A DNA stretch of 26,521 bases from Verrucomicrobiota bacterium (GCA_018896395.1 JAHIMN010000105.1:1-26521), one strand, 5' to 3'; counted from the first letter of the stretch, positions 1 to 25,924 are shown. Notes: a model not told the origin generated them from the sequence alone. Numbers and translations: made by a program.

Positions 1-827
1 AAGACGGCCGCCCCCTGGTCTTCGCCGATTTCCAGAAAGAACACACCGCCGGGCTTAAGCGCCTGCAATGCCTGGGCCATGAGCCGCCGGATGATCGCCA
101 GGCCGTCGGGACCGCCCACCAGAGCGGCGCGGGGCTCAAAATCACGCACACTCCGCTCCAGCTGTGTCCAGTCCGTCGCGCGTATATAGGGCGGATTGGA
201 CACCATGGCATCTAGGCTTGCAAAGGTCGCTGGACCCGCTGTTACAACATTCCAACATTCTGCAGAATGTTGGAATGTTGTTTTAGGCGTTGCGGCCGAC
301 AACAGATCGCAGGCAATGAAACGAATGCGTGGCAAAACCCCGTGCCGCGCCGCATTTTCCCGCGCCAGCGCCAGGGCCGCCGCGCTGGTATCGGTGGCCA
401 GGTAACGGCCCTCCGGTCGTTCCAACGCCAGCGAAATAACAATACATCCACTGCCGGCACCAACATCCGCGATGGCTGGCGCTTTGTTTTGCCATAGTGG
501 CGCTTCCTCCAGCATCCAAGCCGTTAGTTGCTCCGTTTCCGGCCGTGGTATCAAAGCCCGGCGGTCGCAGATAAACACGCGGCCCATGAACTCCGCCTCG
601 CCCATGATGTATTGCAGGGGTTCGCCCGTGGCCAGGCGCGCCGCGCCCTCTTCAATCTGCCGAACCTGGGATTCGGAGAGGCTTTGGTCTTTCCGCGCCG
701 ATAGCTCCAGCCGGGGACAACCTAAGATGCGACTCGTCAGCCACTCGCATTTAAGTCGCGCCTCGTCCGGGTCTGAGGTTTGCACGCGGGCGGTAACGGT
801 GTCGAGGATGGCGCCGAGGGCAGGCAT
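1..827 (-). CDS. prmC: Release factor glutamine methyltransferase (HemK/PrmC), 3' end runs off the window
   Basis: Not in the ORF track (no stop in window). Manual translation from ATG at 827 gives GEPLQYIMG, LIPRPETE, DVGAGSG (SAM motif), VSNPPY and FEPRAALVGGPDGL. Lies directly downstream of prfA. Confidence 0.95.
   Translation of the reverse strand, partial: MPALGAILDTVTARVQTSDPDEARLKCEWLTSRILGCPRLELSARKDQSLSESQVRQIEEGAARLATGEPLQYIMGEAEFMGRVFICDRRALIPRPETEQLTAWMLEEAPLWQNKAPAIADVGAGSGCIVISLALERPEGRYLATDTSAAALALARENAARHGVLPRIRFIACDLLSAATPKTTFQHSAECWNVVTAGPATFASLDAMVSNPPYIRATDWTQLERSVRDFEPRAALVGGPDGLAIIRRLMAQALQALKPGGVFFLEIGEDQGAAV
244..281. repeat. 38-bp perfect palindrome built from two CAACATTC octamers and their inverse, in frame within prmC
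   Basis: ACAACATTCCAACATTCTGCAGAATGTTGGAATGTTGT checked base by base as self-complementary. Confidence 0.95.
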
Positions 828-835
828 GTTGCAAC

Positions 836-1933
836 CTACATTTCCAGCAACTGGTCTAATGAAAGGGTGGTTTGGGCGGCGTGGTTGTGTTCGCAAAGCG
901 CCAGCAACAGGGCGGCCAGCTCGCCTTCCATGACCTTTTCCAGGTTGTGCGAGGTGAAATGAATGCGGTGATCGGTAAGGCGGTTTTGCGGAAAATTGTA
1001 GGTGCGAATGCGCTCGCTGCGGTCCCCACTGCCGATCTGTGAGCGACGCGACTCTCCCGCCTGGTCTTCCGCTTCCCGCCGCTTCAGCTCCAGCAGGTGC
1101 GAGCGCAGGACGCGCATGACCTTCGCCCGGTTCTTGTGCTGGGAGCGCTCCTCCTGGCTGGCCACCACCAGGCCGGTGGGCAGGTGGGTGATGCGCACGG
1201 CGGAATCGGTTTTGTTGACGTGCTGGCCGCCGGCGCCGGAGGCGCGATACACGTCAACGCGCAGGTCTTCCGGCTTGATCTCAATCGCATCCACGTCCTC
1301 GGCCTCGGGCAGAACGGCCACCGTGGCGGTGGACGTGTGAATGCGCCCGGACCCTTCCGTGACGGGGACACGCTGGACGCGGTGGGTGCCGCCCTCGAAC
1401 TGCATGGCGCGGAATACGTTCTCGCCCTGGATTGAAAATACAATTTCCTTGTACCCGCCGATCCCGGAGGTGCTGGCGTCGATGAGTTCGGTCTTCCAGC
1501 CATTATTTTCCGCATAGCGCATATACATGCGCGCCAGGTCCCCGGCAAAGAGCGCCGCTTCGTCGCCGCCCGTGCCGGCGCGGATTTCCATGATTGCGTT
1601 GCGCTCGTCATTGGGATTGGGCCTCTGGAGTTCGATCAGCAGAATCCGTTCGGCTTCCGGCCGGGCTTTTTCAGCCTTCGCGAGTTCCTCTTTCGCCAGG
1701 GCTTTGAGCTCGGGGTCGGTGCTGTCCAGGGCGATCAATTCATGGTGTTCGCGGATATCCTTCTGCAGGCGCGCCAGAATGTTGGCCTGTGCCAGGATTT
1801 TTTTCAGACGCGCGTGGGATTTCAGCAGATCGCGTAATTTCCGCGGGTTCGCGACGGCGGCCGAGGCCAATTGCGCCTCGCGCTCGGCGACCCGGGCGCT
1901 CAGAGCTTCGAGGAATGCGGGGGCGATGTCCAT
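836..1933 (-). CDS. prfA: Peptide chain release factor 1
   Basis: GAGGQHVN (GGQ), [14 protein letters not shown] (PxT motif of RF1), [20 protein letters not shown]; rpmE-prfA-prmC synteny. Confidence 0.97.
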
Positions 1934-1946
1934 GGCTGATTCAAGA

Positions 1947-1974
1947 AATGGTCAATGGTTCATGGTTGATGGCT
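1947..1974. repeat. Solo heptamer array (AATGGTC AATGGTT CATGGTT GATGGCT)
   Basis: Four 7-nt units; 25/28 identical to 22437-22464. Confidence 0.85.
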
Positions 1975-2001
1975 TAAAACAAATCCTGAGTTTTGTTCAC
2001 A

Positions 2002-2060
2002 AACCATCCCGCCGTAGTTTCTTGGGCTAAGCGAAAGTCTCCAGGCAAAGCGGGATGGTT
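2002..2060. repeat. Long hairpin (11-bp perfect outer stem AACCATCCCGC/GCGGGATGGTT plus imperfect inner stem)
   Basis: Arms at 2002-2012 and 2050-2060; inner TTTCTTGGG can pair with TCCAGGCAAA using G-U pairs and a bulge. Confidence 0.7.
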
Positions 2061-2074
2061 GGCGGGCGATACGC

Positions 2075-2114
2075 AAAAAGGGCCAGGCGGTAAAAACACT
2101 CCCGCCCTGGCCCT
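2075..2114 (-). terminator. Intrinsic terminator after rpmE
   Basis: GC-rich stem AGGGCCAGG(G)CGG / CCGCCTGGCCCT followed by a T-run on the minus strand, 15 nt after the rpmE stop. Confidence 0.75.
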
Positions 2115-2129
2115 GTTAACGCTCCGCCG

Positions 2130-2330
2130 CTATTTCTTGCCATAGCGCTTTTTGAACTGCTCCACGCGCCCGGCCGCATCCACATATTTTGCTGTGCCTG
2201 TATAGAAGGGATGGCAGGCGGAACAGCTGTTGATCTGCATGTCCTTCACGGTCGAACGGGTATGAACCACGTTCCCGCAAATGCATGTAATCGTCGTGTC
2301 TTGATATTTCGGATGGATTTTTTCTTTCAT
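2130..2330 (-). CDS. rpmE: 50S ribosomal protein L31, zinc-binding (C+) type
   Basis: MKEKIHPKY, CxCG, CSACHPFYTG, GRVEQFKKRY; upstream SD-like GGAG/GAGG. Confidence 0.97.
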   Translation of the reverse strand: MKEKIHPKYQDTTITCICGNVVHTRSTVKDMQINSCSACHPFYTGTAKYVDAAGRVEQFKKRYGKK

Positions 2331-2491
2331 GCCTCATCCTCTCCGGTGCTTGCTTCAAGCGCAAGGGCGACCAGTGCCAAAAACGACATAACTAATCACA
2401 GCGTTGCCCTGAATGCAAGTACTTTTTTTATAAAAACGTAAGCCCTAACCTGAAAATTACCGCCGTGCCTAAAATGGGCCCAGAATGGGCA

Positions 2492-2520
2492 TTGCCAAAA
2501 CGAATCGTTTCGGGTAGTTT
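2492..2520 (+). promoter_or_regulatory. Putative sigma70 promoter for the TPR gene
   Basis: TTGCCA-N17-TAGTTT; the -35 lies in a 15-mer shared with 8126-8140. Confidence 0.45.
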
Positions 2521-2593
2521 CATGCCATAGGCAGACCCGCCTAAGGCGGGAAATCTTGTTTACCACCAGCAATGAGCGAAGGGAGGAAAGATT

Positions 2594-4135
2594 ATGGCAG
2601 GCGGCAGACTCGGACAAGGATTAACCATTGCGCTATGTGCCGCACTGCTGTTCGCCGGCTGTCGGGAGAACCCGACCCAGAAAGCCTACCGGCAAGGCGT
2701 GCAGGCGCTCCAGCGGGGACAATACACCCAGAGCATCCGCCTGTTGCAGAAGAGCGCCAAGCTCGGCGGCACGAATGCGCCCGTGGCCGCCATTCATAAT
2801 GGCCTGGGTCTTGCTTATTACCGTATCGGCCAGCCGGAAAATGCCTTGGGTGCTTTTGAGTTGAGCACCCGGCTGGATCCTGAATTCGCGGAACCGGTCT
2901 ATAACACCGGCGTCATTATGGCTGAATCCGGGCGTGAAACTCAAGCGGTGGCCTGCTTTGAGAAGGCGGCGCAGTTGGATCCCTCCGGTACGCGCTCGCT
3001 CGAATATCTTGGCCGGATTTTCTACCGGAATCAGCGCTGGGATAATGCCCGTAAGGCCCTGAACGAGGCGCGTCAGCGCGCGCCCCGCGAACCCCGTATC
3101 CTGACCGCCATGGCGCTCCTGGAACTTCAGGTCACCAACATGGTGCTGGCCATTTCCTGCCTGCAGGAAGCGCTGGAGCATGATGCCGGTTACGCCCCGG
3201 CGCTTTATAATCTGGCCATTGTGAATCACCTCTGGCTGAAAAACGACAGTCAGGCGGTGCCGTTGTTCAAGGATTACCTGCGTCTGGCCCCGAAAGGGGA
3301 GGGTGCTGAAAAAGCCTCCCAGGTACTCCAGGACATTAATAAACTGTCGTCAGCCGCGGCCGCCGAGGAAACTCCCGGCGTTGTGCCGCCGGTCACAAAG
3401 GCGCCCGTCTCTTCCGTTTTGCCTGTGAGCGTGACTGCCAAGAAAACCGGGCAACAACAGCCGGCGTCGCCCCTTGTCGTGGCCAAGGTCCCGCTTGTTT
3501 CTGCCTCCCCGTCCTGCGAGGAATTATTAAGGGTTGCCCGGAAGCTGGAACAGCAGGGACGCCTTGAAGCCGCCATCAACAATTATCTGCTTGCAGCGCG
3601 CGAAGCCGAACGTGTGGGCAAACCTTCGGTTCGGGATCAGGCCGAGAAGGAAGCCAACGGACTCTGCGCGCAGAATGCCCGCGCCCATTACGAAGTGGGC
3701 CTGTATTGGGATTGGCGCGGCCAGCCGGATGAAGCCCTGGCCCATTTGAAGCAGGCCGCGGAGTTAAGCAATACCTGGTATGAGGCGCACTTTGCGGTGG
3801 CCCGGGTGGCTGTAGATAAAAACGAGTTTGATACGGCGTTGATTTCGTTGAAAAAGGCGGACCAGAGCCGTCCCGACCGGCCCGAAGCATTATGGATGCT
3901 GGCCCAGCTGTATGACCGTAATCTCGGCTTGACCAACCAGGCGATCCAAGCTTATGAACTGTTTGAACAACGGTTCGGCGGCGATGGACGGGCCCAGGAA
4001 GGGCGCGGGCGGCTGAAAGCACTGAAGGGCGGTATAGCGGAGAACGTGCACCCATCCGCTCCCGCTAAAACCGACACGCAGACCCGCTGGCGGTGGCTGT
4101 TCAAGTCGCGGTCGCAAAAAAATCCGGAAAACTGA
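2594..4135 (+). CDS. Tetratricopeptide-repeat lipoprotein (two TPR blocks joined by a Pro/Val/Ser-rich linker)
   Basis: Signal peptide ending in lipobox-like FAGC; TPR-type helices (e.g. IHNGLGLAYYRIGQPENALGAFELSTRLDPE); SD GGAGG. Confidence 0.85.
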   Translation: MAGGRLGQGLTIALCAALLFAGCRENPTQKAYRQGVQALQRGQYTQSIRLLQKSAKLGGTNAPVAAIHNGLGLAYYRIGQPENALGAFELSTRLDPEFAEPVYNTGVIMAESGRETQAVACFEKAAQLDPSGTRSLEYLGRIFYRNQRWDNARKALNEARQRAPREPRILTAMALLELQVTNMVLAISCLQEALEHDAGYAPALYNLAIVNHLWLKNDSQAVPLFKDYLRLAPKGEGAEKASQVLQDINKLSSAAAAEETPGVVPPVTKAPVSSVLPVSVTAKKTGQQQPASPLVVAKVPLVSASPSCEELLRVARKLEQQGRLEAAINNYLLAAREAERVGKPSVRDQAEKEANGLCAQNARAHYEVGLYWDWRGQPDEALAHLKQAAELSNTWYEAHFAVARVAVDKNEFDTALISLKKADQSRPDRPEALWMLAQLYDRNLGLTNQAIQAYELFEQRFGGDGRAQEGRGRLKALKGGIAENVHPSAPAKTDTQTRWRWLFKSRSQKNPEN

Positions 4136-4157
4136 GACCGGAACGTGTAGCCCAAAA

Positions 4158-4181
4158 ATCCGCGCGTAACAAAGCGCGGAT
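4158..4181. terminator. Hairpin after the TPR gene (possible terminator)
   Basis: ATCCGCGC-N8-GCGCGGAT; no U-tract on the plus strand, so function is uncertain. Confidence 0.35.
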
Positions 4182-4206
4182 CAGGAATGGCTTTGCCCTA
4201 ACCCGG

Positions 4207-4233
4207 ATATTTCACGCTTGGCGTGAAATATGC
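4207..4233 (+). promoter_or_regulatory. Perfect 11-bp inverted repeat overlapping a sigma54-like -24/-12 promoter
   Basis: ATATTTCACGC-TTG-GCGTGAAATAT (4207-4231); TTGGCGTGAAATATGC has GG-N10-GC spacing (GG 4220-21, GC 4232-33). Confidence 0.45.
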
Positions 4234-4262
4234 GGGCTAATAAGAAAATAGTAGTTACCGCC

Positions 4263-5567
4263 ATGGCGAAGATTCTCCTCGTTGACGATGAAGTCCATTT
4301 GCTGAAAGCAATGGATATGTTTCTGCGTAGCCGGAAGCACGACGTGATGCCGATTTCGGATGGCCGCGAGGCGGAACGCCTGATCCGGTCAAGCCCCTAT
4401 GACCTGATTATTTCCGATATCCGTATGACGCCCGTGGACGGACTCCAACTGTTGCGCATTGCCCGGGAATCCTGTCCGGAAACCCCCGTGATTCTGATCA
4501 CGGCTTATGCGACGCTGGATGTCGCGCTGGATGCCATCAGAGCCGGCGCGTTCGACTTTGTCACCAAGCCCTTCAAGACCGATAATTTCATGGCCACTGT
4601 CCGGCGCGCCCTGGATTACCCTCGCATCGTGGATGGCGCCATTCAGCTGGACCCGCCCGAACCTACTCCCCAGCGGTTCAATCCGCTGATTATCAAGAGC
4701 GTGGAAATGCAGGCGCTCTGCCAGCGCCTGGAACAATTCGCACCAACAGATGAAGCGGTCCTGATTCTGGGTGAGCGGGGTGCAGGCAAGCGCCAGGTGG
4801 CCCAAATTCTGCATGGGCTCAGCCGGCGCAAGGATTACCCGTTTGTTTCCGTGGATTGCTCGGCCGGGACGGCCGCCAACCTGATTACGCAGTTATGCGG
4901 GGCGGGTTCGCCGACGGCGGATTCGCCGTCGGAAAAAGACGGCGCCCTGGAGACCGCCAAAGGCGGCACGGTGGTTCTGGAATACATCGAAGAATTGCCG
5001 GCGGCTCTTCAGCCGTCAATTGTCTGCCTGATCAAGATGCGCGAATTCATGCGACCGGGCGACACGCAGGTTTACCAAGTGGATGTCCGCATCCTGGCCA
5101 CCAGCCGAGCGCTCCCGGTGATTCAACCCTCTGACGACCCGCAACACGTCGAATGGATTAAAATGCTCTCGGCCATTTCGCTTCCTGTCCCACCGCTGAG
5201 GGAACGGCGGGCCGACTTGTTGCCGTTGATCAGTCGCTGGGTCAATCAGCGGACGGCACCCGCTGGATCCAAGCCCTGGAAAATGACGGCCCAAGCCTTT
5301 GATGTGCTGGACCAGTATCCCTGGCCGGGCAACGTCGAAGAACTGGAACGGACCCTGTCCCAGGCCATGACGAAGGCCCGGGAACGACGGATTGACATTT
5401 CCGATCTGCCCCCCTCGTTGGTCGAGGCGGTTGCGCAGATCAAAACCATTTCCCAACAGCATCTCCAACGGAATGAACTGCGGGGCAAATCGTTCCGGGA
5501 CTATATCCGCCTCAAGCAGGAAGACTATCGCCCGTTATCCGGACCAAAGGCGGCAAGGATCTCATGA
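4263..5567 (+). CDS. NtrC-like response regulator (REC + degenerate AAA+ sigma54-activator domain, no evident HTH)
   Basis: Intact receiver (LLVDDE, ISDIRM, TAY, KPF); GERGAGK Walker A; PPLRERR; WPGNV. GAFTGA is absent. Start moved from 4230 to ATG 4263 (MAKILLVDD). Confidence 0.85.
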   Translation: MAKILLVDDEVHLLKAMDMFLRSRKHDVMPISDGREAERLIRSSPYDLIISDIRMTPVDGLQLLRIARESCPETPVILITAYATLDVALDAIRAGAFDFVTKPFKTDNFMATVRRALDYPRIVDGAIQLDPPEPTPQRFNPLIIKSVEMQALCQRLEQFAPTDEAVLILGERGAGKRQVAQILHGLSRRKDYPFVSVDCSAGTAANLITQLCGAGSPTADSPSEKDGALETAKGGTVVLEYIEELPAALQPSIVCLIKMREFMRPGDTQVYQVDVRILATSRALPVIQPSDDPQHVEWIKMLSAISLPVPPLRERRADLLPLISRWVNQRTAPAGSKPWKMTAQAFDVLDQYPWPGNVEELERTLSQAMTKARERRIDISDLPPSLVEAVAQIKTISQQHLQRNELRGKSFRDYIRLKQEDYRPLSGPKAARIS

Positions 5568-5914
5568 ACCAGCTTGATCAGGTGGGTCCATTGGAAGGGC
5601 TTGACGACATAACCTGCGGCGCCCAGATGCCGGGCCTTCTGGCGATCTTCCACGGTTGAGCGTGCCGTGAGAAAGACAATGGGAATGCGCTCCGTCACCG
5701 GATCCTGTCGCAATTGCTGGAACACCTCAAACCCATTGCGACCCGGCAGGCAGATATCGAGGAGAATCATGTCCGGTTTTTCTTCCCGGGCCCGTTCCAA
5801 GGCGCTGATGCCGTCTGTCACCCATGCGGTCTGATAACCTTCCGCCTTGAGCCTCATGACAAGGGCCTGGACCAGGTCCGATTCATCTTCGATAATGAAT
5901 ATTTTTGCGCTCAT
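5525..5914 (-). CDS. Single-domain response regulator
   Basis: IFIIEDE, ILLDICLPG, FLTA, VKPF; ATGA overlap with the kinase stop; overlaps the convergent NtrC-like gene by 43 bp. Confidence 0.92.
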   Translation of the reverse strand: MSAKIFIIEDESDLVQALVMRLKAEGYQTAWVTDGISALERAREEKPDMILLDICLPGRNGFEVFQQLRQDPVTERIPIVFLTARSTVEDRQKARHLGAAGYVVKPFQWTHLIKLVHEILAAFGPDNGR

Positions 5915-7962
5915 GGGTGCTTGGCAACCTTCGCCGACACGCTCGCCGGCTGAGAATCCAGGTTCAGTAGGCGCTTAACTTTCATGACGAATTCATCGAA
6001 ATCAAACGGCTTGCAAAGAGAATCGTCGCATCCCAATTGCATGATTTCATCAATATCGCCGCGATAGCCGGAAACAACCAGGAATTTGGTGGTGCGGTGC
6101 GGAAGACGCTTAGTCATCGAATCAAAGACGCGTTTTCCGTCAATATCGGGCAAATGGAGATCCAATACCACCAGGTCGGGGTTCCATTCGCCGAAATGGA
6201 TGCAGGCGTCGTAACCGCTTGTAGTGGACTTGAGGTCCAGTCCCGCGCCGGATTCGTGGAGCACCCGCACCATGAGATTCAGGATCGAGGCGTCGTCGTC
6301 CACGATCAGAACGCGCCGAGGAGTTGTTTCCACGGGACCGATCGGAAGCGGTTTCAGGAGCGCCAGGGCTTGCGCCAGCCACTCACGGGGCGCGCGCGCG
6401 CGCGTGGGCTCCAGGTAGGCCATGCGAATACCGTCCATGATCGCCTGCCGCTGTTTTCCAAAGGTTAGCTGGAGACGGGCGGCAACACCGTCCCGCGTCT
6501 GCTCGGTGCCGTCGAGCAGAACAATCAGTGCCTGGTTGGCTTCGAACAGAAACGTTTGTTCGGCGGTGCAATTCAGCGCTTCCATCGCCAAAGTCCGGAG
6601 ACGCTCGGCGGTCTCTTTGCTCGCCGGGTCGCCGCCGGGCACGGATGGCGCGGCAACTTGGAGGACCAGCATGGATAACTGCCGGTCGCGGACTTCCATG
6701 AATCGCATGCGATCGGTGATAAACGCGTCCAAATTCTTTTCCTCGGTATGGATGGGCAGAGTGAATAAAAAACGACTGCCCTTTTCCGGAATGCTCTCGA
6801 CCTGAATGATGCCTTCGTGAATGTCGATAATGTGCTTGCTGATCGCCAGGCCCAGCCCGGTGCCTTTGCTCCCGGTGTTGTCTTCCGTACGGGCGAGCTG
6901 GATGAAGGCCTCGAAAATCCGGCTTTGATCTTCCGGGCTGATACCCGTCCCGGTGTCCTCGATGTCTATCCGAATGGCATCGTTCTCCCGGTCGGCGCGC
7001 AGGGTAATAACGCCTTCTTCCGGCGTGAATTTGTTGGCGTTGCCCACCAGGTTGGTCAGCACCTGGGCAATCTTATCCCGATCGCAGAGCACATCCGGAA
7101 GCGTCTCGGGCATCTCCAGGTTAAACTGTTGATGGCGCAGAAGACATTGCGGGATGAAATCATGATGACACTGTTTCAGCAGATCGGTGAGGTTCACGCG
7201 CCCGCGATGGAACTCTTCCCGCCCGGACTCAATCCGTCCCAGGTCGAGGACATCATCAATCAGCCCGGCCAGTCGTTCGCAATTCCGGAGGACGGTCTCC
7301 AGGCATTCCTTCTGCTGATCGGATACCGCTCCGGCGACGCCGTCATTAACCAGCGCGACAAACGTATTGATGATGGTCAGCGGTGTGCGTAATTCGTGTG
7401 ACACGTTAGCCACGAAGCGGGATTTGGATAAATCCATTTCCTTCAACCGGGTGACCGTCTGTTGCAGCGCCTCTTCCGCCTTTTTCCGCTTCGTGATATT
7501 GCGAACAAAAAAGCAGAGATGCCCTTCCGGGGTCAGGACCAGCCGGTTGGTGGCGATTTCGGCCGGGAACGTCGTGCGGTCTTTCCGGATACACGAGGCT
7601 TCGATCAGCGTGTAGCGGCGCTGTTCAATGTTCCGGCGGAGCGTCGCCAGCAGGACCTCATTGGCGCCGGCAATGATGTTGATGATGTTGAGCCGGCTGA
7701 GCTCGTCCTTGGTATAAAGCAGGAAATCCATGGCACGTTCATTGACGTCCATGATCCGGCCGGCGGCATCGGTGATCAGCACGCCGTCGTAAAGGCTCTG
7801 AAGCAGTTCATGGTAGGGCACCGCGTCCGCGGATTCATCCAAGGGCGCCGGCCCCTTTTTCTTCACAATAACCCGTGGGACTTTTGGCACTACGGCAGTT
7901 CCGGATTCCTCGAACGGAATCGCGATCCGGACGGTTCTGGCAAAAGATTCATCTCCAGACAT
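5911..7962 (-). CDS. Hybrid sensor histidine kinase (PAS-HisKA-HATPase-degenerate GGDEF-like-REC), cytoplasmic
   Basis: PAS (YDGVLITDAAGRIMDVN), H-box SHELRTPL, N-box NLVGNANKF, DTGTGI, GTGLGL, C-terminal REC. Start placed at ATG 7962, which has SD GGGAGG. Confidence 0.92.
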   Translation of the reverse strand: MSGDESFARTVRIAIPFEESGTAVVPKVPRVIVKKKGPAPLDESADAVPYHELLQSLYDGVLITDAAGRIMDVNERAMDFLLYTKDELSRLNIINIIAGANEVLLATLRRNIEQRRYTLIEASCIRKDRTTFPAEIATNRLVLTPEGHLCFFVRNITKRKKAEEALQQTVTRLKEMDLSKSRFVANVSHELRTPLTIINTFVALVNDGVAGAVSDQQKECLETVLRNCERLAGLIDDVLDLGRIESGREEFHRGRVNLTDLLKQCHHDFIPQCLLRHQQFNLEMPETLPDVLCDRDKIAQVLTNLVGNANKFTPEEGVITLRADRENDAIRIDIEDTGTGISPEDQSRIFEAFIQLARTEDNTGSKGTGLGLAISKHIIDIHEGIIQVESIPEKGSRFLFTLPIHTEEKNLDAFITDRMRFMEVRDRQLSMLVLQVAAPSVPGGDPASKETAERLRTLAMEALNCTAEQTFLFEANQALIVLLDGTEQTRDGVAARLQLTFGKQRQAIMDGIRMAYLEPTRARAPREWLAQALALLKPLPIGPVETTPRRVLIVDDDASILNLMVRVLHESGAGLDLKSTTSGYDACIHFGEWNPDLVVLDLHLPDIDGKRVFDSMTKRLPHRTTKFLVVSGYRGDIDEIMQLGCDDSLCKPFDFDEFVMKVKRLLNLDSQPASVSAKVAKHP

Positions 7963-8133
7963 AACTGCCTCCCTGCCCGCAATGCTGCGCACCCGCCTGC
8001 AACGCTGTAGCACTGCGGGCAGGTAGCTCTGCAGGCGGGCCGCGTTAAATTGGCTTTCTGTCAAAGGACAGCAAATATGATTGTTGCCATAACAGGTGGA
8101 TTGTCAATCTGTTTCTGAGGCGCGAAATGGGCA

Positions 8134-8162: not shown

Positions 8163-8216
8163 ATTTCCGTTTCGTATGGGAATTGAATTTCATAGCCTGA
8201 CTTGGAACTTTTAGCC

Positions 8217-11661: not shown

Positions 11662-11693
11662 CGCGGGCCAACGCCCGCAGCCCAAAGAATTTG

Positions 11694-11773
11694 CCCGCTA
11701 AACACGCGAAAGGACCGCTAAATTTAAAAGGAAAATCTTTTCTTTTTTCGCGTCTTTTTGCGTGTTTCGCGGG
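11694..11773. repeat. Imperfect inverted repeat of 9/10-nt periodic units (CGCGAAACA-type), empty, between convergent genes
   Basis: Left CCCGCTAAACACGCGAAAGGACCGCTAAA vs reverse complement of right CCCGCGAAACACGCAAAAAGACGCGAAA (24/29 aligned); 23-nt AT-rich core. Confidence 0.8.
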
Positions 11774-11828
11774 TAATGTTCCGGTTTCTTTTCTTGTTTG
11801 TTATAGCGGTTTCCGGTGGATTAATTTC

Positions 11829-12627: not shown

Positions 12628-12669
12628 TTTCGCACGCTTCACGCGATACGCTTTACGCTTCACGTGCTT
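12628..12669. repeat. Solo heptamer array (CGCTTCA family) containing the nucleotidyltransferase stop codon
   Basis: TTTCGCA CGCTTCA CGCGATA CGCTTTA CGCTTCA CGTGCTT. Confidence 0.85.
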
Positions 12670-13198: not shown

Positions 13199-13335
13199 AA
13201 GTGAACGTTACCAAAACGGCCCAGCGGTTGCCACTTTTTTTTTACCGAACAACTACGGAGGGGCGTCACCGGAACCAACTGCAACGCCGTATCCCGCAGT
13301 GCGGGAATAATGAGGGGCACTCATCAAAGGCGCGG

Positions 13336-13370
13336 TGTCAATAGATTCCACGAAGTTGAATCTATTGACA
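13336..13370. promoter_or_regulatory. Perfect 13-bp inverted repeat carrying TTGACA; likely operator/promoter of the SDR operon
   Basis: TGTCAATAGATTC-N9-GAATCTATTGACA. Confidence 0.6.
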
Positions 13371-13471
13371 TCTGTTTCTTAAAGCGATAAAGGTAACAGG
13401 AAAACACCCGGCCATATTTCTTTGTATATTCATGCAGAACGTCTCTAAATAATACAGAAAGGAAAGCGGTT

Positions 13472-17839: not shown

Positions 17840-17849
17840 GGTAATGGCC

Positions 17850-19049: not shown

Positions 19050-19069
19050 CATGAACTCCTTGTTCAATA

Positions 19070-19209
19070 AATTCCAAGTTCCAAAATCCAAATTCCAAGG
19101 AATAGTTAAATTCTAATAAACAAAACAAATCCAACGCTTCAATTCGTTTTATTCCTTTTGCTTTAATTGATTGCGTTTCCCTGGAATTTGGAGCTTGGAA
19201 TTTGGAATT
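19070..19209. repeat. Inverted heptamer arrays (AATTCCA x4 / TGGAATT x4) flanking an AT-rich 84-nt core; empty element
   Basis: AATTCCA AGTTCCA AAATCCA AATTCCA (19070-97) and TGGAATT TGGAGCT TGGAATT TGGAATT (19182-209). Confidence 0.9.
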
Positions 19210-19264
19210 TTATGGGTGCGGTCATTTTTGATGTTTTCTTGTTTTTATCCACGGTTCTGAATGG

Positions 19265-19897
19265 TTAAGATGCTGCCCGGGCTTCTTTCGCGGCTTGGAT
19301 GAAGGCCGCCACTTTGCGATGATCTTTTTTACCCGGTGCCTTTTCCACGCCGCTGGCCGTGTCCACACCCAGCGGGGCGACGATGCGAATCGCTTGGGCG
19401 ACATTGTTCGGGGTCAGGCCTCCGGCCAGCATCAGCGGCGCCTGGCGGGCCAGTTTGGCCGCTTTTGCCCAGTCTGCTGTCCGGCCGGTCCCTCCATATC
19501 GGCCCGGGACGGTGGCGTCCAGCACATAACGTGTCGTCGGCCATTGGTCCGGCACGGGGTCAAGTTTACCGTGACGCAGCCGCACGGCGCGCCAGACCGG
19601 AACCGGCATGTCGATCCAATCGGCCAAGCGCTCATTACCATGGAGTTGAACGGCATGCAAGCGGCAATCGCGCACCAGCATTTCCACAAGTTCGCGGGGA
19701 GCATTCACGAAGACGGCAATGGCCCGCGCGCCGGCCGGGAGCCGATCCAGCAGGCGGCGCAAGGCGCCGGGCGTGATGCGGCGGGGGGATCGTTCGTACA
19801 GCACAAATCCCAGGTAATCCGCCCCCGCGTCCAGCGCCATGCGGGCGTCCGGCAGATTGGTCAATCCGCAAATTTTGATTTCGGTTGTTCGGCGCAT
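19265..19897 (-). CDS. trpF: Phosphoribosylanthranilate isomerase
   Basis: IKICGLT, GFVLYERSPR, VQLHGNE, GGTG, LAGGLTPNNV, GVDTASGVE. Confidence 0.95.
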   Translation of the reverse strand: MRRTTEIKICGLTNLPDARMALDAGADYLGFVLYERSPRRITPGALRRLLDRLPAGARAIAVFVNAPRELVEMLVRDCRLHAVQLHGNERLADWIDMPVPVWRAVRLRHGKLDPVPDQWPTTRYVLDATVPGRYGGTGRTADWAKAAKLARQAPLMLAGGLTPNNVAQAIRIVAPLGVDTASGVEKAPGKKDHRKVAAFIQAAKEARAAS

Positions 19898-19901
19898 AGC
19901 G

Positions 19902-20696
19902 TTAGCTGCCTAATAACTCGCGCAAGGTTGCGGCCATGTTGTCCGACTTCATGAGCGTTTCGCCGATTAAAAATCCACTGTATCCACGTGCCTGCAGGTC
20001 CTCAATGTCGTGCCGGCTTTTTATGCCGCTTTCGGCGATCGCCAGGCGTCCTGGTGGAATCAGGGGCGCCAGATCCCGGGCTTGCTCCAGGTCGGTTTTC
20101 AGCGTATTCAGATCCCGGTTGTTGATGCCTATGATGGCCTGGTCGAGCGGGAGGACGCGGTCCATCTCATCCCGCGTATGCACCTCCACGATCACATCCA
20201 GCCCAATGGCCAGTGCAATGATATAAAGTTCGTTCAATAAATGGTCTTCCAGGCCCGCCGCAATCAGCAGGATGACGTCCGCGCCCAGTGCCCGCGTCTC
20301 AAAGACCTGGTAAGGATCGGACACAAAGTCCTTGCGCAATATCGGCAGATTCACTGCCTGGCGGACCTGTTTCAGGTCCTCATCCCGGCCGAGAAAATGC
20401 CGGGGCTCCGTCAGCACCGAAACACCGACCGCTCCCGCCTGTTGATAAGTCCTGGCCACTGCCGCCGGATCATATGATTTGCACAGCAGGCCTGCCGATG
20501 GACTCGCCTTTTTGACCTCGGCGATAATGCCCGCCTGGCGGCTGTGCGTTTCCGCACAAGTCAGCCGCTGCTTCAAGCTCCTATTCTTGGGAAGCCCCGC
20601 GACGACCCGTTCCAGGCGCTCCAGCGGCAGATACGCACTTGCCTGCCAGGCATCGTTGCGCCGCGCGGCCATGATAGATTGGAGCAAGGAGCTCAT
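19902..20696 (-). CDS. trpC: Indole-3-glycerol phosphate synthase
   Basis: IIAEVKKASPS, SVLTE, ILRKDF, GADVILLI, EVH, GINNRDL, AESGI, LIGE. Confidence 0.96.
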   Translation of the reverse strand: MSSLLQSIMAARRNDAWQASAYLPLERLERVVAGLPKNRSLKQRLTCAETHSRQAGIIAEVKKASPSAGLLCKSYDPAAVARTYQQAGAVGVSVLTEPRHFLGRDEDLKQVRQAVNLPILRKDFVSDPYQVFETRALGADVILLIAAGLEDHLLNELYIIALAIGLDVIVEVHTRDEMDRVLPLDQAIIGINNRDLNTLKTDLEQARDLAPLIPPGRLAIAESGIKSRHDIEDLQARGYSGFLIGETLMKSDNMAATLRELLGS

Positions 20697-21700
20697 GTTC
20701 GCGTGTGTTCGATCAGTGCCTGTAGCTTGGCGGCGGCCTGGCCGCTGTCTATCGAGACTTTCGCCAGTTCAAAGCCCTGCTGCAGGTCATCGGCTTTACC
20801 GCCGGCGACAATGCCGGCAGCCGCATTGAGCAGCACAATATCACGCGCGGCGCCGCTTTCGCCCGCAAGCACGCGGCGGGTGATTGCCGCGTTTTCTTTC
20901 GGGGAGCCGCCCCGCAGGGCATCCAGAGAATGATGGGCGCCGATGAGCGGGAGCGGATCCAGCTCGTAAGTGCGCAGGTGGCCGTCGCGCAGTTCCGTGA
21001 CGCGCGTCGTCGTGGTGACCGTGATTTCATCCAAACCGTCCCGGCCATGCACAATAAAGACCCGCTTACTGCCCAGGACGCGCAAGACGGCGGCGAAACT
21101 TTCGGTCAGTTCCGGCGCAAACACGCCCAGGATTTGACCGCGGGCGTTGGCCGGGTTAGTCAATGGGCCCAGCATATTAAAAATGGTGCGGACGCCCAGC
21201 TCCCGGCGCACCCCGGCAACGTGTTTCATGGCCGGATGCAGGTTGGGGGCGAACAGGAAACCGATCCCGATATCGCGGATGCATTCCTCCACGGTTTCCG
21301 ACGGTGCCTCAATATTAATACCCAGCGCAACCAGGACGTCGGCCGAGCCGCATTGACTGGTGACCGCCCGGTTGCCGTGCTTGGCCACCGGTACGCCTGC
21401 GCCGGCTACAACGAACGCGGCTGTGGTGGAAATGTTGAATGTGCCCGCGCGGTCGCCGCCCGTGCCGCAGGTGTCCACGACCGGCATACCGCCAGTGTCA
21501 ATCAGCACGGCGTGCCGCCGCATGGCGGCCGCGGCGCCGCTCAGCTCGTCCACGGATTCGCCCTTCATGCGCAGGGCGGTCAGAAACGCGCCGATCTGCG
21601 CGGGGGTAAGCTTACCCTCCATGATCTGGTCGAACACTGCGCCGGCTTCGGACGAGGCCAGGTCATGGCGGTCTATGAGTTTTTGCAGAACGTGTTGCAT
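20693..21700 (-). CDS. trpD: Anthranilate phosphoribosyltransferase
   Basis: DTCGTGGD, TFNIST, KHGNR, GSAD, RTIFNMLGPL, DGLDE. Start ATG 21700 after TAAGGA. Confidence 0.96.
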   Translation of the reverse strand: MQHVLQKLIDRHDLASSEAGAVFDQIMEGKLTPAQIGAFLTALRMKGESVDELSGAAAAMRRHAVLIDTGGMPVVDTCGTGGDRAGTFNISTTAAFVVAGAGVPVAKHGNRAVTSQCGSADVLVALGINIEAPSETVEECIRDIGIGFLFAPNLHPAMKHVAGVRRELGVRTIFNMLGPLTNPANARGQILGVFAPELTESFAAVLRVLGSKRVFIVHGRDGLDEITVTTTTRVTELRDGHLRTYELDPLPLIGAHHSLDALRGGSPKENAAITRRVLAGESGAARDIVLLNAAAGIVAGGKADDLQQGFELAKVSIDSGQAAAKLQALIEHTRT

Positions 21701-21715
21701 AGTGTCCTTATTCAA

Positions 21716-21799
21716 GTGTGGGAGTATGGGCGTACGGGCGTGTGGGGGTACGGAGAAGACTCTTAACTCCCATACATCCAAACTCCCATACACCCATAC
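21716..21799. repeat. Inverted octamer arrays (GTRYGGGN x5 / NCCCATAC x4) with a 12-nt spacer; empty element
   Basis: GTGTGGGA GTATGGGC GTACGGGC GTGTGGGG GTACGGAG, then TCCCATAC ATCCAAAC TCCCATAC ACCCATAC. Confidence 0.9.
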
Positions 21800-21853
21800 T
21801 CTTAGTCATGCTACTTCGAACACCTTCCCTGTAGTCACCAAGAAACTTGATTG

Positions 21854-22432
21854 TTAATGTTGCCCCGCGGCCAGGTCCAGAAAGTTGCGGAGCAAGTGCT
21901 TGCCGCCCGGCGTCAGGATGGATTCCGGATGAAACTGGACGCCATAGGTGGCGTGCTGGCTGTGGCGCAGGCCCATGATTTCATTGTCCTCAGTGGTGGC
22001 CTCGATCACCAGTTCCGGGGGCAGGCCTGCGCGCATAATGGCCAGGGAATGATACCGCCCGGCCACAAAGGGGTTCTTGAGCCCTTGATACAGCCCTTTG
22101 CCGGTGTGATGGATGAGCGACGTTTTGCCGTGCATAATGGCCTGAGCGCCGGCCACCCGCGCGCCAAAGGCCGCGCCAATAGCCTGGTGGCCCAGACATA
22201 CGCCCAGGATGGGAACAGTGCCGGACAGCCGGCGGATCAACGCCACGGAAATGCCGGCTTTATCGGGCGTGCAGGGGCCGGGCGAAATTACCACGGCCTG
22301 CGGGCGCAAAGTGACCACGGCATCCACCGTGACGGCATCGTTGCGGAATACCTGGATTGAGGCGCCCAAGGTGCCGAGCGCATGCACCAGGTTGTAGGTG
22401 AACGAATCGTAATTATCAATTAGAATAATCAT
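21854..22432 (-). CDS. trpG: Anthranilate synthase component II (glutamine amidotransferase)
   Basis: IDNYDSFTYNL, SPGP, GVCLGHQ, RYHSL, VQFHPES; operon context. Confidence 0.93.
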   Translation of the reverse strand: MIILIDNYDSFTYNLVHALGTLGASIQVFRNDAVTVDAVVTLRPQAVVISPGPCTPDKAGISVALIRRLSGTVPILGVCLGHQAIGAAFGARVAGAQAIMHGKTSLIHHTGKGLYQGLKNPFVAGRYHSLAIMRAGLPPELVIEATTEDNEIMGLRHSQHATYGVQFHPESILTPGGKHLLRNFLDLAAGQH

Positions 22433-22893
22433 GAGGAATGGTCAATGGTTAATGGTTGATGGTCAATGGAAGAAGCTGGCGAAGCGTTCGCGGGTTTGGA
22501 TTTTCCATGTAATTGGATTTTTCGTTCAATGCTTGTAATTAAATTACCCAGCTGATGAAGAGCATCTTCATATCCAGAGAAAAGTGTTTCGTCGCCGGCT
22601 GTCAATAGATGCGTGTCTTTGGCATAGTTAAGATGCATAAATGTTTCACGCGCTTCGCGGCGGCAGCGATGCAAAGATTGTAAATATTCCGTGCTGTATT
22701 GAGAATAAAAGCCCTCGGTCATGTTGGCGCACACCGATTCCGATGCCCTTAATAATTGGCTTCGTAGCCATTTAAAATCGGACCGGAATGGGCGGCTCAT
22801 CGTTTCGATCTTCAACGCCAGTTCATAAAACAAGCGATAAACCGGCATATCTTCAACATTTTCGATGTGTTTCTTTTCCATGCTGCGCCTCAT
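22429..22893 (-). CDS. Four-helix bundle protein (TIGR02436 / 23S rRNA IVS protein family)
   Basis: EDMPVY...SQLLRASESVCANMTEG...EY..L matches the family pattern Q..RA..S...N..EG. Alternative start ATG 22881. Confidence 0.85.
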   Translation of the reverse strand: MRRSMEKKHIENVEDMPVYRLFYELALKIETMSRPFRSDFKWLRSQLLRASESVCANMTEGFYSQYSTEYLQSLHRCRREARETFMHLNYAKDTHLLTAGDETLFSGYEDALHQLGNLITSIERKIQLHGKSKPANASPASSIDHQPLTIDHSS

Positions 22894-22963
22894 CGCTCAT
22901 CACGCATTCTTGTCTCCTCTTTCATCACCCATTGACCATCACCCATTGACCATCAACCATTCT
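22436..22963. mobile_element. Putative cassette: four-helix bundle gene bounded by inverted heptamer arrays (AATGGTY / RACCATT)
   Basis: Left AATGGTC AATGGTT AATGGTT GATGGTC AATGGAA (22437-71); right TCATCAC CCATTGA CCATCAC CCATTGA CCATCAA CCATTCT (22922-63); outer ends GAATGG/CCATTC. Mobility is inferred. Confidence 0.6.
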
Positions 22964-24473
22964 TTAGTTGGAGTCCGTTGGCAGCCAGGGCCACCGCGTT
23001 TTGCATGCCGCGCGCCTTGTGACCGGTCTCCTCAAATTCCTTTTGCGGGTCGGAATTGTAGACGATGCCGGCGCCGGCCTGGATGGCGATGGTGCCGCCG
23101 GCGATTTCCAGGGTGCGGATCGTGATGGCAAAATCCATGCTGCCGTCATAGCTGATTTAGCCCAGCGCGCCGCCGTAGGCTCCGCGTGGTTCGCTCTCCA
23201 GTTCGTGGATGATTTCCATGGCGCGAATTTTGGGCGCGCCCGAGAGTGTGCCGGCGGGAAAAGTGGCGCGGATAACATCGGCGGCATCACAACCCTTGCG
23301 CAGGATGGCTTCCACATGCGAGACAATATGCATGACGTGGCTGTAGCGTTCGATCGTCATGTAGTCGCGCACCTGCACGCTGCCGGTTTCCGCCACGCGC
23401 CCAAGATCGTTACGGCCCAGGTCCACCAGCATGATGTGCTCGGCTTTTTCCTTGTCGTCGGAGAGCAGGTCATCGGCCAGTTGGCGGTCCTGCTGTTCGG
23501 TGGCGCCGCGCGGGCGCGTGCCGGCGATGGGCCGCAGTTCCACGCGGTTGCCCGTGAGCCGCACCATGATTTCCGGCGAAGAGCCCACCAGGGCCTGGTC
23601 GCCGATCTTGAGAAAATACAGGTAGGGCGAGGGGTTCAGCAGGCGCAGGGCGCGGTACAGCTGGAAGGGCGGCACCTCCGAGCGGGCACTGAACCGCTGA
23701 CTCAGGACCGCCTGAATGATATCCCCGGCCACAATGTAATCCTTGGCCTTGCGGACGATTGCCTGGTACTGGGCGCTCGTCATGTTGGAGGTGAACGTCA
23801 CCGGCGGATAGACGCGATTTTCGACGCGCGGCGCCGGTTGTTGGAGGATCGTCTCGATGGCGGCAATTTTCCGGCAGGCGGCCTCATAGACCTCCGTTGG
23901 TGTGGCGGCACTCGCGGGACGCGAGCAGACAATGACCTTGATCGTGTGGCGCAGGTTGTCGAACACGATCAGGTTATCCACTTTCAGGAAGCGGCTGATC
24001 GGCCGGCCCCCGCCACGAACCGGCTTGGGTGCCGGCAGGCGTTCGAACTCGCGGATGGCCTCGTAGCCAATGTAACCCACGGCTCCGCCGAAAAAGCGGG
24101 GCAGACCCGGCATGGTGGCCGCGCGCACGCCCTGGTACACGGGCCGCAGGCGCCGGAGCAATTGCGGGTCCGTGACGCCAGGCTCCGCCGGAGCACTCCC
24201 TGCTCCGCCAGAGCGCTGCGCGGGGGCGAGTCGCCCAGGCGAGTCGGTGTGTTCGATTTCGAACAAAAGCTCGGGCTCGACGCCGATGAAGGAATAGCGG
24301 CCCCAGGTTTCACCGCCCTCGATACTTTCGAGCAGGAACACGTTCGGGTTATCCGCAAAGCGCCGGAGCACGGAAACCGGCGTTTCGAGATCGGCCAGCA
24401 CTTCCTTGCAGACCGGGATCAGGTCATATTCCCTGGCCAGCGCGAGGTAGTCCTGTAGGGTTGTGTGTTGCAT
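22953..24473 (-). pseudogene. trpE: Anthranilate synthase component I with one in-frame TAA at 23157-23159 (nonsense mutation or sequencing error)
   Basis: GRYSFIG, GDIIQAVLS, NPSPY, GSSPE, PIAGT, EHIMLVDLGRND, PAGTLSGAPK. Reading continues in the same frame: YGGALG*ISYDGSMDFAITIRT...QAGAGIV (506 aa if read through). Confidence 0.9.
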
Positions 24474-24481
24474 GGTGTTTC

Positions 24482-24510
24482 TATATATAGAAACATCGGG
24501 GCGCTGTCAA
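24482..24510 (-). promoter_or_regulatory. Putative sigma70 promoter of the trp operon
   Basis: TTGACA-N17-TATATA on the minus strand, -10 ending 8 nt before the trpE ATG; no SD. Confidence 0.5.
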
Positions 24511-24548
24511 TAGAAAAAATAAACTTTTTTTGCTCGCGCGTTTTTCAA

Positions 24549-24576
24549 TTGCACCGCCGGCGGACGATTCTATACT
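24549..24576 (+). promoter_or_regulatory. Putative sigma70 promoter of yggU
   Basis: TTGCAC-N16-TATACT, 10 nt before ATG 24587. Confidence 0.5.
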
Positions 24577-24586
24577 GGCCTGCGCC

Positions 24587-24874
24587 ATGAACTGGATTAC
24601 AGCAACCAAAACCGGCGTGATGCTGTCCGTACACGCCTGCCCGCGCGCCGCGCAGGACCAAGTGCAGGGCTTGCACGGGGATGCCGTCAAGATCCGCTTG
24701 CGGGCGCCGCCGGCGGATGGCCGGGCCAACAATGCGTTGATCGCTTTCCTCAGTCGGATACTGGATGTGCCCGCGCGCCACTTGATCATTGTGGCCGGGC
24801 ACAGCTCGCGCCGCAAACGGGTGGCCATTGCCGGGGTAACCGAAGCGGCGGTGCGGGCCAAGCTGGGACTTTGA
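24587..24874 (+). CDS. DUF167 (YggU/UPF0235) family protein
   Basis: VHACPRA, KIRLRAPPADGRANNALIAFL, IVAGHSSRRK match the family pattern. Confidence 0.88.
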   Translation: MNWITATKTGVMLSVHACPRAAQDQVQGLHGDAVKIRLRAPPADGRANNALIAFLSRILDVPARHLIIVAGHSSRRKRVAIAGVTEAAVRAKLGL

Positions 24875-24879
24875 CCGCA

Positions 24880-25839
24880 TTAGGTCAGTTCCAGTTCGCT
24901 TTTGCAAAGCTCGTAGAAACGGCAGTGCCGGCAGATACCGAGATCGGCGGATAGTTCCCAGTCCTCCTGCGGCAGGGGCTGGTTCCTGCGGATGTCGCCC
25001 GCCACGAGGTATTCGGCCATGCCCCCGACCGATTCGCGGATTAGCCCGCGGGCGTGCTCCAGGTCGTGACCGGTCAGGGCCATGCTCTGGGTGGCGCCCT
25101 TCGAAAGGTATTCCAGGTGCACCTGGATACGCTCGGGCGGGAGGGCGTGCTTGGTGTGGGCCCAGAGACCGTAAATGGTCATCTGGTCCCGGTGCGCCGG
25201 CTTCTCGCTACCTGCCTTCCAGTCGTGGATGTGCAGGTGGTCCTCCTGGCGATAAGCATAATCCGGGATGGCATACACCTTGATGGACTCAAACAGAAAC
25301 GATTCAGGGTCGCCGCCATCCGCGTGCGCGATCTCCACCTCCTGCTCCGGGCGCACAGACCCCAAGCGCGGCATGACCTGCTCCAGAAAATTAGCCAGAC
25401 AGCGCTTGATCTGCTCGATCATGCGCGCGGTCATGTCCGCCTCGGGCGTATGATGATGCGCGGGGTAGTAATGTTCGTGCAGACAGCAGTGCTTTTTGGG
25501 ATTGGCCTGCCACAGTTTCTTTTTAGACTCGTTCCAGCATTGATTCAGGTAAGGCTTGACGACCGTTTCATAGGCTTGGGTTGCGGTAACCGGCTTGCCG
25601 GCCTGCTCCGCCTGCGTCTGCCGGAGCGCCCACATGACGGCGCGTTCCACGGCATTGCCCTGGAGCGTGAACCGGTTTTCCATTTTACCCAGCCGGTAGG
25701 CCGCGCGCGTCAGGCTGGGGGCATCCGCCTTCCATCCGCCCCACATGGCATACTTTGCCAGGAACCGGCGGCGCGGGCATTCTTCAAAGTCTGCCCGTGC
25801 GGAAATGGACCAGGAAAAGGTGTTGATCAGATCGGCCAT
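24880..25839 (-). CDS. PD-(D/E)XK nuclease of the RecB/AddB/Cas4-like type with four putative Fe-S cysteines
   Basis: N-terminal CPRR, AIPD, IHDWKAG, QMTIY (QxxxY), C-terminal CRHCRFYELC. Confidence 0.82.
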   Translation of the reverse strand: MADLINTFSWSISARADFEECPRRRFLAKYAMWGGWKADAPSLTRAAYRLGKMENRFTLQGNAVERAVMWALRQTQAEQAGKPVTATQAYETVVKPYLNQCWNESKKKLWQANPKKHCCLHEHYYPAHHHTPEADMTARMIEQIKRCLANFLEQVMPRLGSVRPEQEVEIAHADGGDPESFLFESIKVYAIPDYAYRQEDHLHIHDWKAGSEKPAHRDQMTIYGLWAHTKHALPPERIQVHLEYLSKGATQSMALTGHDLEHARGLIRESVGGMAEYLVAGDIRRNQPLPQEDWELSADLGICRHCRFYELCKSELELT

Positions 25840-25896
25840 ATTGTATATCCGGAATATCTCACAAGGTTGCTTTCCGCCTGAGGAGGATCAACCTCC

Positions 25897-25924
25897 GGCT
25901 GAAGACTGTAGGCTATAGACTATC
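25897..25924. repeat. Solo heptamer array (GRCTRWA) containing the Fic stop codon
   Basis: GGCTGAA GACTGTA GGCTATA GACTATC; the TAG stop is the complement of 25913-25915. Confidence 0.7.

Follow-up and report, generated by a model that had tools for sequence, protein, structure and literature searches.

Tandem-repeat arrays of a Verrucomicrobiota contig as probable arms of small mobile cassettes related to rRNA intervening sequences

Introduction

The best-described relatives of the elements considered here are the intervening sequences (IVSs) that interrupt some 23S rRNA genes. In Coxiella, the IVS holds a gene of the PF05635 family, has a 28-bp terminal stem and tandem heptamers that vary between strains, and is cut by RNase III (PMC4990558). 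IVSs of 23S rRNA that bear an open reading frame (ORF) have been suspected of present or past mobility (PMC4990558), and 23S_rRNA_IVP genes are on record as lying between cas genes (PMC3936711). Tandem heptamers have been described separately, as the short tandemly repeated repetitive (STRR) sequences of cyanobacteria, as 70-75 inverted GGGAATC heptamer pairs between aligned genes of Xanthomonas, which were read as G-quadruplex motifs (PMC4692102), and as multicopy heptanucleotide elements of Geobacter metallireducens (PMC2700814). Here we analyse a 26,521-nt stretch of DNA from a Verrucomicrobiota bacterium (GCA_018896395.1, JAHIMN010000105.1; hereafter the window), in which arrays of 7-9-nt repeat units, many of them inverted pairs, lie at gene boundaries. 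A first-pass annotation of the sequence had proposed that the arrays are the ends of repeat-bounded gene cassettes.

We conclude that the arrays are probably the terminal inverted arms of small, selfish, mobile cassettes of the IVS type and of their gene-less derivatives. Two classes are seen. The first consists of heptamer or octamer arms around a promoter-less gene for a four-helix bundle (4HB) protein of PF05635, the family encoded inside 23S rRNA IVSs, and the second of arms of 8-9-nt units around a small gene with the PD-(D/E)XK nuclease fold (GxxExxY, PF13366). To each class belong many gene-less copies with the arms of that class, resembling MITEs (miniature transposable elements with inverted repeats). 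Our search of the literature found no paper that describes this cassette class as such. To our knowledge, PF05635 and PF13366 are very large protein families without a known role, and neither the origin nor the function of IVSs is known.

Results

Repeat arrays of the window

The window is the entire contig C36 of G000, a 2.0-Mb groundwater metagenome-assembled genome (MAG) of 317 contigs, 70.7% complete and with 57% G+C. In what follows, G000 denotes this MAG and other G numbers the genomes compared with it; L numbers are individual loci and C numbers contigs. Arrays were detected with Tandem Repeats Finder (TRF) and by direct reading of the sequence, and predicted folds were scored as z against dinucleotide shuffles. 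The elements are as follows.

244-281: perfect 38-bp octamer palindrome, two CAACATTC units and their mirror image (245-260/265-280), in frame inside prmC (TRF, sequence)
1946-1974: solo array of four AATGGTY units, abutting the prfA start on its upstream side
11693-11774: 82-nt palindromic element without a gene, between yacP and rlmB, which converge (fold z -7.8)
12633-12664: solo array of heptamers (CACGCTT x 4.6) that overlaps the AbiEii-like nucleotidyltransferase (NTase) gene at its 3´ end (TRF score 36)
19069-19210: gene-less AAATTCC-family element between trpF and trpB, with arms of about four units each (19069-19098/19182-19210) and an 83-nt core
21720-21801: gene-less octamer inverted pair of ACTCCCAT type (21720-21753/21765-21801) between trpG and trpD (TRF; fold z -7.0)
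22429-22893, minus strand: 4HB gene, co-oriented with the trp operon (PF05635, E 8e-14; TIGR02436, E 9e-15)
22437-22469: AATGGTC-type heptamer arm of the full cassette, trpG side (TRF, sequence, alignment)
22923-22961: AATGGTC-type heptamer arm of the full cassette, trpE side, providing the last codons and stop of trpE (TRF)
25897-25924: array claimed by the first-pass annotation, not supported

The five paired elements have fold z values from -4.9 to -9.3, and no shuffle folded as well. In the one full cassette of the window, the arm on the trpG side encodes the tail of the 4HB protein, the 4HB stop overlaps the trpG start (ATGA), and a 33-bp stem closes the whole (z -4.85). The prmC palindrome contributes residues ~206-218 of the protein and forms a 17-bp hairpin (z -9.3); the AAATTCC element has a 33-bp stem (z -8.6), with a conserved flank that extends to ~19245. 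The repeated unit around the 82-nt element reaches from ~11656 to ~11821, and its arms exactly match those of a GxxExxY cassette on contig C287. Neither solo array has a hairpin or fold that is significant against shuffles. The one before prfA lies below the TRF cut-off, yet is near-identical to the cassette arm at 22437-22463, and ~45-nt copies of the one at 12633-12664 are found elsewhere in G000 and in G003 and G007.

Seven of the eight arrays that had been claimed were thus recovered by TRF, direct reading or the existence of repeat copies. The eighth, at 25897-25924, gave no TRF row, a fold z of +0.9 against shuffles and no repeat family. The placement at gene boundaries is as had been described, with three elements inside the trp operon and one in frame in prmC. 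The suggestion that the NTase and Fic genes are cargo is not supported, since it drew on one weak solo array and on the unsupported one at 25897-25924.

Inverted arrays frame two families of small genes

Nine of the 11 TIGR02436/PF05635 (4HB) genes of G000 lie between inverted arrays of heptamers or octamers, and each has its own unit. A survey of homologues, one genome per species, gave 581 relatives; the best 80 were taken, and both flanks were available for 69 of these. With a score of at least 12 taken to indicate an inverted repeat between the two flanks, 47 of the 69 homologues (from about ten phyla, among the best 80 of 581) were flanked in this way, whereas 0 of 62 control positions 700 nt away were. 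The orientation of the unit is fixed relative to the 4HB gene, GTTCNNN being found upstream and its complement downstream, with TAGTNNNN octamers in Chloroflexota. Unit type also follows the 4HB protein tree, on which it changes 12 times compared with 41 when labels are shuffled, and three 4HB paralogues within G000 each have the type that goes with their clade. At 66 of 71 loci, the cassette and its upstream neighbour share a strand. Overall, 29 of 31 relatives have 4HB genes, with 1-14 per genome.

The same architecture surrounds the second family. Both GxxExxY genes of G000 (PF13366, PDDEXK_3, PD-(D/E)XK fold) lie between inverted arrays, as do 25 of 28 GxxExxY loci from other genera of the class (0 of 23 controls); in these 25 the arms are built of 8-9-nt units of CACGRAG/CGCAGAG type. 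These flank counts, together with the gene-less families described below, bear out the proposal of repeat-bounded cassettes that exist with and without small cargo genes.

Two cassettes of G000, on contigs C217 and C223, have 75-81% DNA identity to loci of Thermodesulfobacteriota, Cloacimonadota, Spirochaetota and others, and the homology is bounded by the arms. This shows that arms and gene travel as one unit, between phyla too. We did not count as horizontal transfer a further cross-phylum pair, C79 and L058. Locus L058, which is labelled 'Kiritimatiellaeota', is 87% identical to contig C79 over 2.7 kb, flanking genes included, and is a syntenic relative; its public label is a warning against inferring cross-phylum transfer from record labels.

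The 4HB gene between trpE and trpG has a dN/dS of 0.09-0.20 among four species, similar to that of trpG, which shows that the cargo gene persists for long under purifying selection. Its dS reaches 0.64 between G000 and G008 (locus L002), where that of the adjacent trpG is 0.22 (0.22-0.33 for trpG overall), suggesting that the trpE-trpG cassette evolves faster than its neighbour or has been exchanged. A separate case is L030 (G000:C203:153-914), a 253-residue ORF with a partial 4HB domain and a coding 9-mer array (TGTCCGACC x 5) that is read as SDRSDRSDKSDKSD; here the array sits inside the 4HB-family gene, not around it.

Arrays are in excess genome-wide and form gene-less families

Arrays are commoner in the genome than expected by chance, as had been anticipated. 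TRF returned 600 period-7 rows for G000 and 78 for a third-order Markov sequence. Inverted pairs of the same unit within 500 nt numbered 97 in the genome and 0 in this null, while direct pairs numbered only 11. Among the period-7 arrays, 59% are mostly non-coding, in a genome that is ~11% non-coding, both values being approximate since they come from a greedy ORF map that misassigns trpE and prmC.

Many of these arrays belong to gene-less families. The AAATTCC family has 18 gene-less copies in G000 and one copy, on C6, that bears a 4HB gene. The gene-less cores are 81-113 nt long, mostly ~83, and most are 80-94% identical over ~85 nt. For the family with GxxExxY-type arms, we found 61 arm matches in G000 that form 25 pairs, 12 of which share a uniform ~44-nt core, and one full copy (C287:2808-3320). 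The 82-nt element at 11693-11774 belongs to this family, and is multicopy in 10 genomes of the genus.

Comparison of the interior of the full AAATTCC copy with the gene-less cores gave matches over 14-22 subterminal nt alone (E 0.008-0.5), and a life cycle that leads directly from full to empty elements is therefore not shown. In the life cycle of full, empty and solo states that had been proposed, one transition from full to solo is documented (at trpE-trpG, in G005 and G002; see below), while the direct derivation of empty from full elements is not supported, since the cores differ. The gene-less copies are relatives of the full ones that have those ends in common, and make up MITE-like multicopy families.

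A GC-rich hairpin of TTGCGGGC-N-GCCCGCA type, resembling repetitive extragenic palindromic (REP) sequences, adjoins many AAATTCC elements (on contigs C8, C66, C71, C89, C94, C105 and C200), and a conserved 'ATGRCCACGCCAAC' lies on the opposite flank. The dispersed unit is thus composite, and longer than arms plus core.

Elements are gained and lost at orthologous junctions

Orthologous junctions were compared across eight species of the genus and several other genera. The trpE-trpG junction holds the full cassette in G000, G008, G009 and G006. In G005 the trpG-side (right) arm alone remains, and G002 has two units at the same derived junction as G005. The junction is ancestral, with a Shine-Dalgarno sequence, in G003, G004 and G001, and in other genera it is free of heptamers, with the exception of a gene-less 9-mer pair in G013. 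The solo array of G005 (L008) is read in frame as a new C-terminal tail of TrpE (NDIGHQPLTINHSS), with a stop that overlaps the trpG start; this tail mirrors that of the 4HB protein of the window.

Presence/absence polymorphism was likewise found at the other sites compared. Between trpG and trpD, the species G000, G009 and G006 share the octamer pair, and three other families occupy the gap in G003/G001, G002 and G005; in other genera the gaps are 17-42 nt long and without repeats. Between trpF and trpB, G000 has the AAATTCC element, G005 just its right arm, G009 a GxxExxY-type element, and G002 and G006 others, with a clean gap of 34-35 nt in G003 and G004. The gap before prfA contains an inverted pair of the AATGGTY unit in G008, an empty element of AACCGTG type in G009, and a different solo heptamer array in G003, G002, G006 and G005. 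The 82-nt element between yacP and rlmB is absent from G002, G005 and G007, and other elements are found there in G006, G009, G004 and G003. The in-frame palindrome of prmC is present in seven of 10 members of the genus, and absent from G005, G007 and G001 as well as from other genera. Matches to the AAATTCC pattern numbered 86 in G000 and 0-52 in congeners (0 for a control pattern). As an additional observation, the yacP-rlmB gap of G003 (G003:C21, ~130071-132487) contains a 2.4-kb insertion, compared with an element of ~165 nt in the window.

The occurrence of ancestral, full, solo-arm and two-unit states, and of different families in one gap, supports insertion as well as loss, and shows that loss, by deletion, leaves solo arms. 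The trpE-trpG cassette itself is identical at 560 of 560 positions in three other public assemblies. In Logan contigs from the same samples, a trpE-trpG allele without the cassette co-occurs, and comes from a related population. A look for excised junctions in these contigs gave one arm-to-arm joint (22470 to 22931), whose shorter side, at only 28 nt, is too weak for it to count as an excision product.

These comparisons bear on a simpler explanation, in which the arrays are simple-sequence repeats that arose in place by slippage, as might STRR or the GGGAATC repeats of Xanthomonas, and were kept by the host for a structural or regulatory role (as stabilisers of mRNA, sites of processing, terminators or G-quadruplex-like structures), with no transposition. 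Unit-like seeds do occur at sites that lack the cassette ('accattNNccatt' at trpE-trpG, 'gaattt' at trpF-trpB), solo arrays directly precede start codons, and the elements are stable among near-identical strains. The Xanthomonas repeats, moreover, are 83% conserved between species and were not found linked to mobile elements (PMC4692102). Against slippage stand gene-less copies that share 85-nt non-repetitive cores at many unlinked loci, cross-phylum homology of cassettes that stops at the arms, unrelated families in one gap in sister species, and copy numbers that span 0 to 86 in a single genus. Nor does trpG-trpD show a seed, and with seeds at two junctions and none at this one, the idea that arms are as a rule templated by their target is not supported. 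We regard an origin by slippage as distinctly improbable.

Search for a mobilising enzyme and an RNA signal

Several results weigh against the interpretation of the arrays as arms of mobile cassettes, or against their processing as RNA. Three to four near-identical assemblies (99.7-100%) have gap-free trp-operon elements and show no movement, and target-site duplications are not visible at the AAATTCC copies or at the yacP-rlmB insertion. On a DNA tree, G006, which has the full trpE-trpG cassette, falls outside the group that includes G003 and G004 with their ancestral junction, so that the history of this site needs recombination, a second insertion or an error in the tree. That gene-less copies are deletion products of the full copy was considered and not shown, 14-22 subterminal nt being all they have in common. 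No match to Y1/RAYT (PF01797) or TnpB was found in G000, where at 70.7% completeness absence is not proven, and the one IS66 transposase and one reverse transcriptase of this MAG have no link to the arrays. RNase III (rnc) was not found in the 70.7%-complete G000, while nine of nine congeners have it. Finally, mismatches in 53 cassette stems comprise 55 sense and 69 antisense wobbles (p = 0.24), without a bias toward sense G-U pairs; nothing therefore points to an RNA-specific constraint. Pairing would be equally good as DNA, on either strand, and a role as a DNA hairpin or cruciform fits at least as well.

As the first-pass annotation had stated, no known transposase is encoded in the window. 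The arrays could nonetheless belong to ordinary elements of MITE or REP type that a known transposase encoded elsewhere (of the IS66, RAYT/Y1 or IS110 type, or similar) moves in trans, with the 4HB and GxxExxY genes as passengers. In favour of this are the terminal inverted repeats, the gene-less families with their many copies and the lineage-specific bursts, and G000 has an IS66 transposase and REP-like GC hairpins beside many AAATTCC copies. Insertion of IS66 creates 8-bp target duplications, unlike anything seen here, and no arrays were seen at the IS66 locus of G000; a Y1 or TnpB match was also missing. In addition, arms vary between families while the cargo family stays constant, and a fixed orientation of cargo and arms, with a unit type that tracks the cargo clade, is unexpected of random passengers. 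We consider this explanation improbable.

A route through RNA has also to be weighed, in which RNase III would cut the stem-closed transcript and a reverse transcriptase, with an Avd-like 4HB protein as cofactor, would copy it before re-insertion. Avd, an accessory protein of diversity-generating retroelements, belongs to the PF05635 family (PMC10053308), RNase III cuts the IVS out at the RNA level (PMC4990558), the cassettes are co-oriented with host transcription, and G000 has one reverse transcriptase gene. But the stems lack an RNA-specific (G-U) signature, no reverse transcriptase is linked to any cassette, and the GxxExxY class follows the same grammar with a nuclease in place of an Avd-like protein. 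This makes the RNA route highly unlikely in our judgment. Period and architecture led us to reject a CRISPR or an integron reading, no attC or integrase search having been made.

Other features of the window

The window contains the following genes.

prmC, prfA, and genes for a TPR protein, an NtrC-like regulator, a histidine kinase and a primase (dnaG)
YacP-like NYN gene (plus strand) and rlmB (minus strand), convergent
AbiEii-like NTase gene, and an SDR/CoA-transferase/thiolase operon
trpE, the 4HB gene, then trpG-D-C-F-B (minus strand)
Genes for a PDDEXK_1 protein and a Fic protein

The window gave no matches in Rfam and tRNA scans, and LSU rRNA was not found in this MAG. The trpE gene has an in-frame TAA (23157-23159, minus strand) where 19 relatives and three near-identical public assemblies have TAC (Tyr); past it, the frame runs for ~65 further codons to the normal end within the cassette arm. 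This TAA is a strain-specific nonsense change or an error of the MAG consensus, and has no connection with the cassette. A 12-bp perfect inverted repeat (TCAATAGATTC ... GAATCTATTGA) at 13336-13372, some 100 nt upstream of the SDR/CoA-transferase/thiolase operon, has the look of an operator site. Several congeners have, at other places, 32-45-nt stretches with 91-97% identity to sequence overlapping the left half of this repeat (13301-13345).

Discussion

Our data point to small cassettes that insert in intergenic gaps, mostly in the orientation of the upstream gene. They often provide that gene with its stop, or overlap the start of the one that follows, such that the operon stays intact. In the transcript, the arms would close a stem of 17-35 bp, of the type that is cut by RNase III in the Coxiella IVS. 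We put forward processing of this kind, by analogy, as a tentative possibility; it would make insertion between cistrons as harmless as insertion in rRNA.

Movement might be catalysed in trans by a factor that recognises the arm, probably in the form of a single-stranded DNA hairpin built of repeated units. The prime candidates for this factor would be the cargo proteins themselves, the nuclease cutting and the Avd-like bundle serving as a nucleic-acid-binding accessory. Because every cargo clade has a unit that it retains and one of the cargos has a nuclease fold, we rate cargo-dependent mobility and arm recognition as the likeliest mechanism, although we hold it with limited confidence. More doubtful is a fuller version, in which the hairpins of heptamer and nonamer arrays serve as recognition ends in a transposase-less system, and the cargo protein, together with host replication or repair, moves both the cassettes and the gene-less copies. 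If that were true, the IVSs of 23S rRNA and much of the heptamer-repeat excess of bacteria would be products of one system.

Our analysis brings together three sets of observations that have been made separately: the ORFs of rRNA IVSs (since 1993), the intergenic excess of heptamers (STRR, Xanthomonas, Geobacter), and the PF05635 and PF13366 families. It adds both cargo classes and gene-less families within one genome; an orthologous site at which ancestral, full, solo and two-unit states form a series, with several junctions where sister species have different families; and an in-frame insertion within a housekeeping enzyme (prmC). There are also consequences for annotation, as the arms change stop and start codons in neighbouring genes, add in-frame peptides (in prmC and in the TrpE tail of G005), and break metagenome assemblies.

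Among described systems, the heptamer repeats of Xanthomonas, Geobacter and cyanobacteria resemble the arrays in that tandem heptamers, typically of about four units, are enriched between aligned ORFs, often as convergent (inverted) pairs and mostly transcribed. The reports on these repeats name no cargo gene or mobility and favour a G-quadruplex or regulator-site reading, whereas here we find two cargo families and polymorphism of insertion and loss. The STRR repeats had been offered in the first-pass annotation as a partial analogue. The likeness holds, as tandem heptamers are enriched in non-coding DNA here too, but lineage and units differ from those of cyanobacterial STRR, making this a case of likeness and not of membership.

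The gene-less families share with MITEs short multicopy elements with terminal inverted repeats and a conserved core (18 copies for AAATTCC, 12 for the 82-nt family). No target-site duplication is visible, however, and the gene-bearing relatives encode only a 4HB or PDDEXK_3 protein, not a transposase. Short palindromic intergenic multicopy elements, a rarer gene-bearing relative with the same ends and lineage-specific amplification are common to MITEs, to REPINs with their RAYT transposases and to the present families; here, the ends are arrays of degenerate tandem units instead of one fixed inverted repeat, and no Y1 (RAYT) gene, as REP/REPIN-RAYT systems have, was found in the 70.7%-complete G000.

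For the GxxExxY class, the nearest functional model is that of the Ssn nucleases with their NTS/SRM repeats (PMC11893778), where a small nuclease gene is similarly framed by its own dispersed cognate repeat. Ssn is a GIY-YIG nuclease shown to cut single-stranded DNA and to modulate transformation (PMC11893778), while the genes described here encode PDDEXK_3 proteins of PF13366, known from sequence.

The closest described analogue, closer than STRR, is the ORF-bearing 23S rRNA IVS of Coxiella (PMC4990558). The cassettes differ from the IVSs in their location between protein-coding genes of an operon (trpE/trpG), and not in helix 25 or 45 of 23S rRNA, in arms that overlap neighbouring stop and start codons, and in the large gene-less families that share these arms; the Coxiella IVS, moreover, is cut by RNase III, while the elements described here are known from their DNA. 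In other respects the cassettes match the IVSs of Coxiella burnetii and Leptospira, with their S23p ORF, closely: a PF05635 ORF in an insert of ~430-530 nt that is co-oriented with the host transcript, terminal inverted repeats that form a stem of ~28-33 bp around the ORF, and terminal tandem heptamers of variable number.

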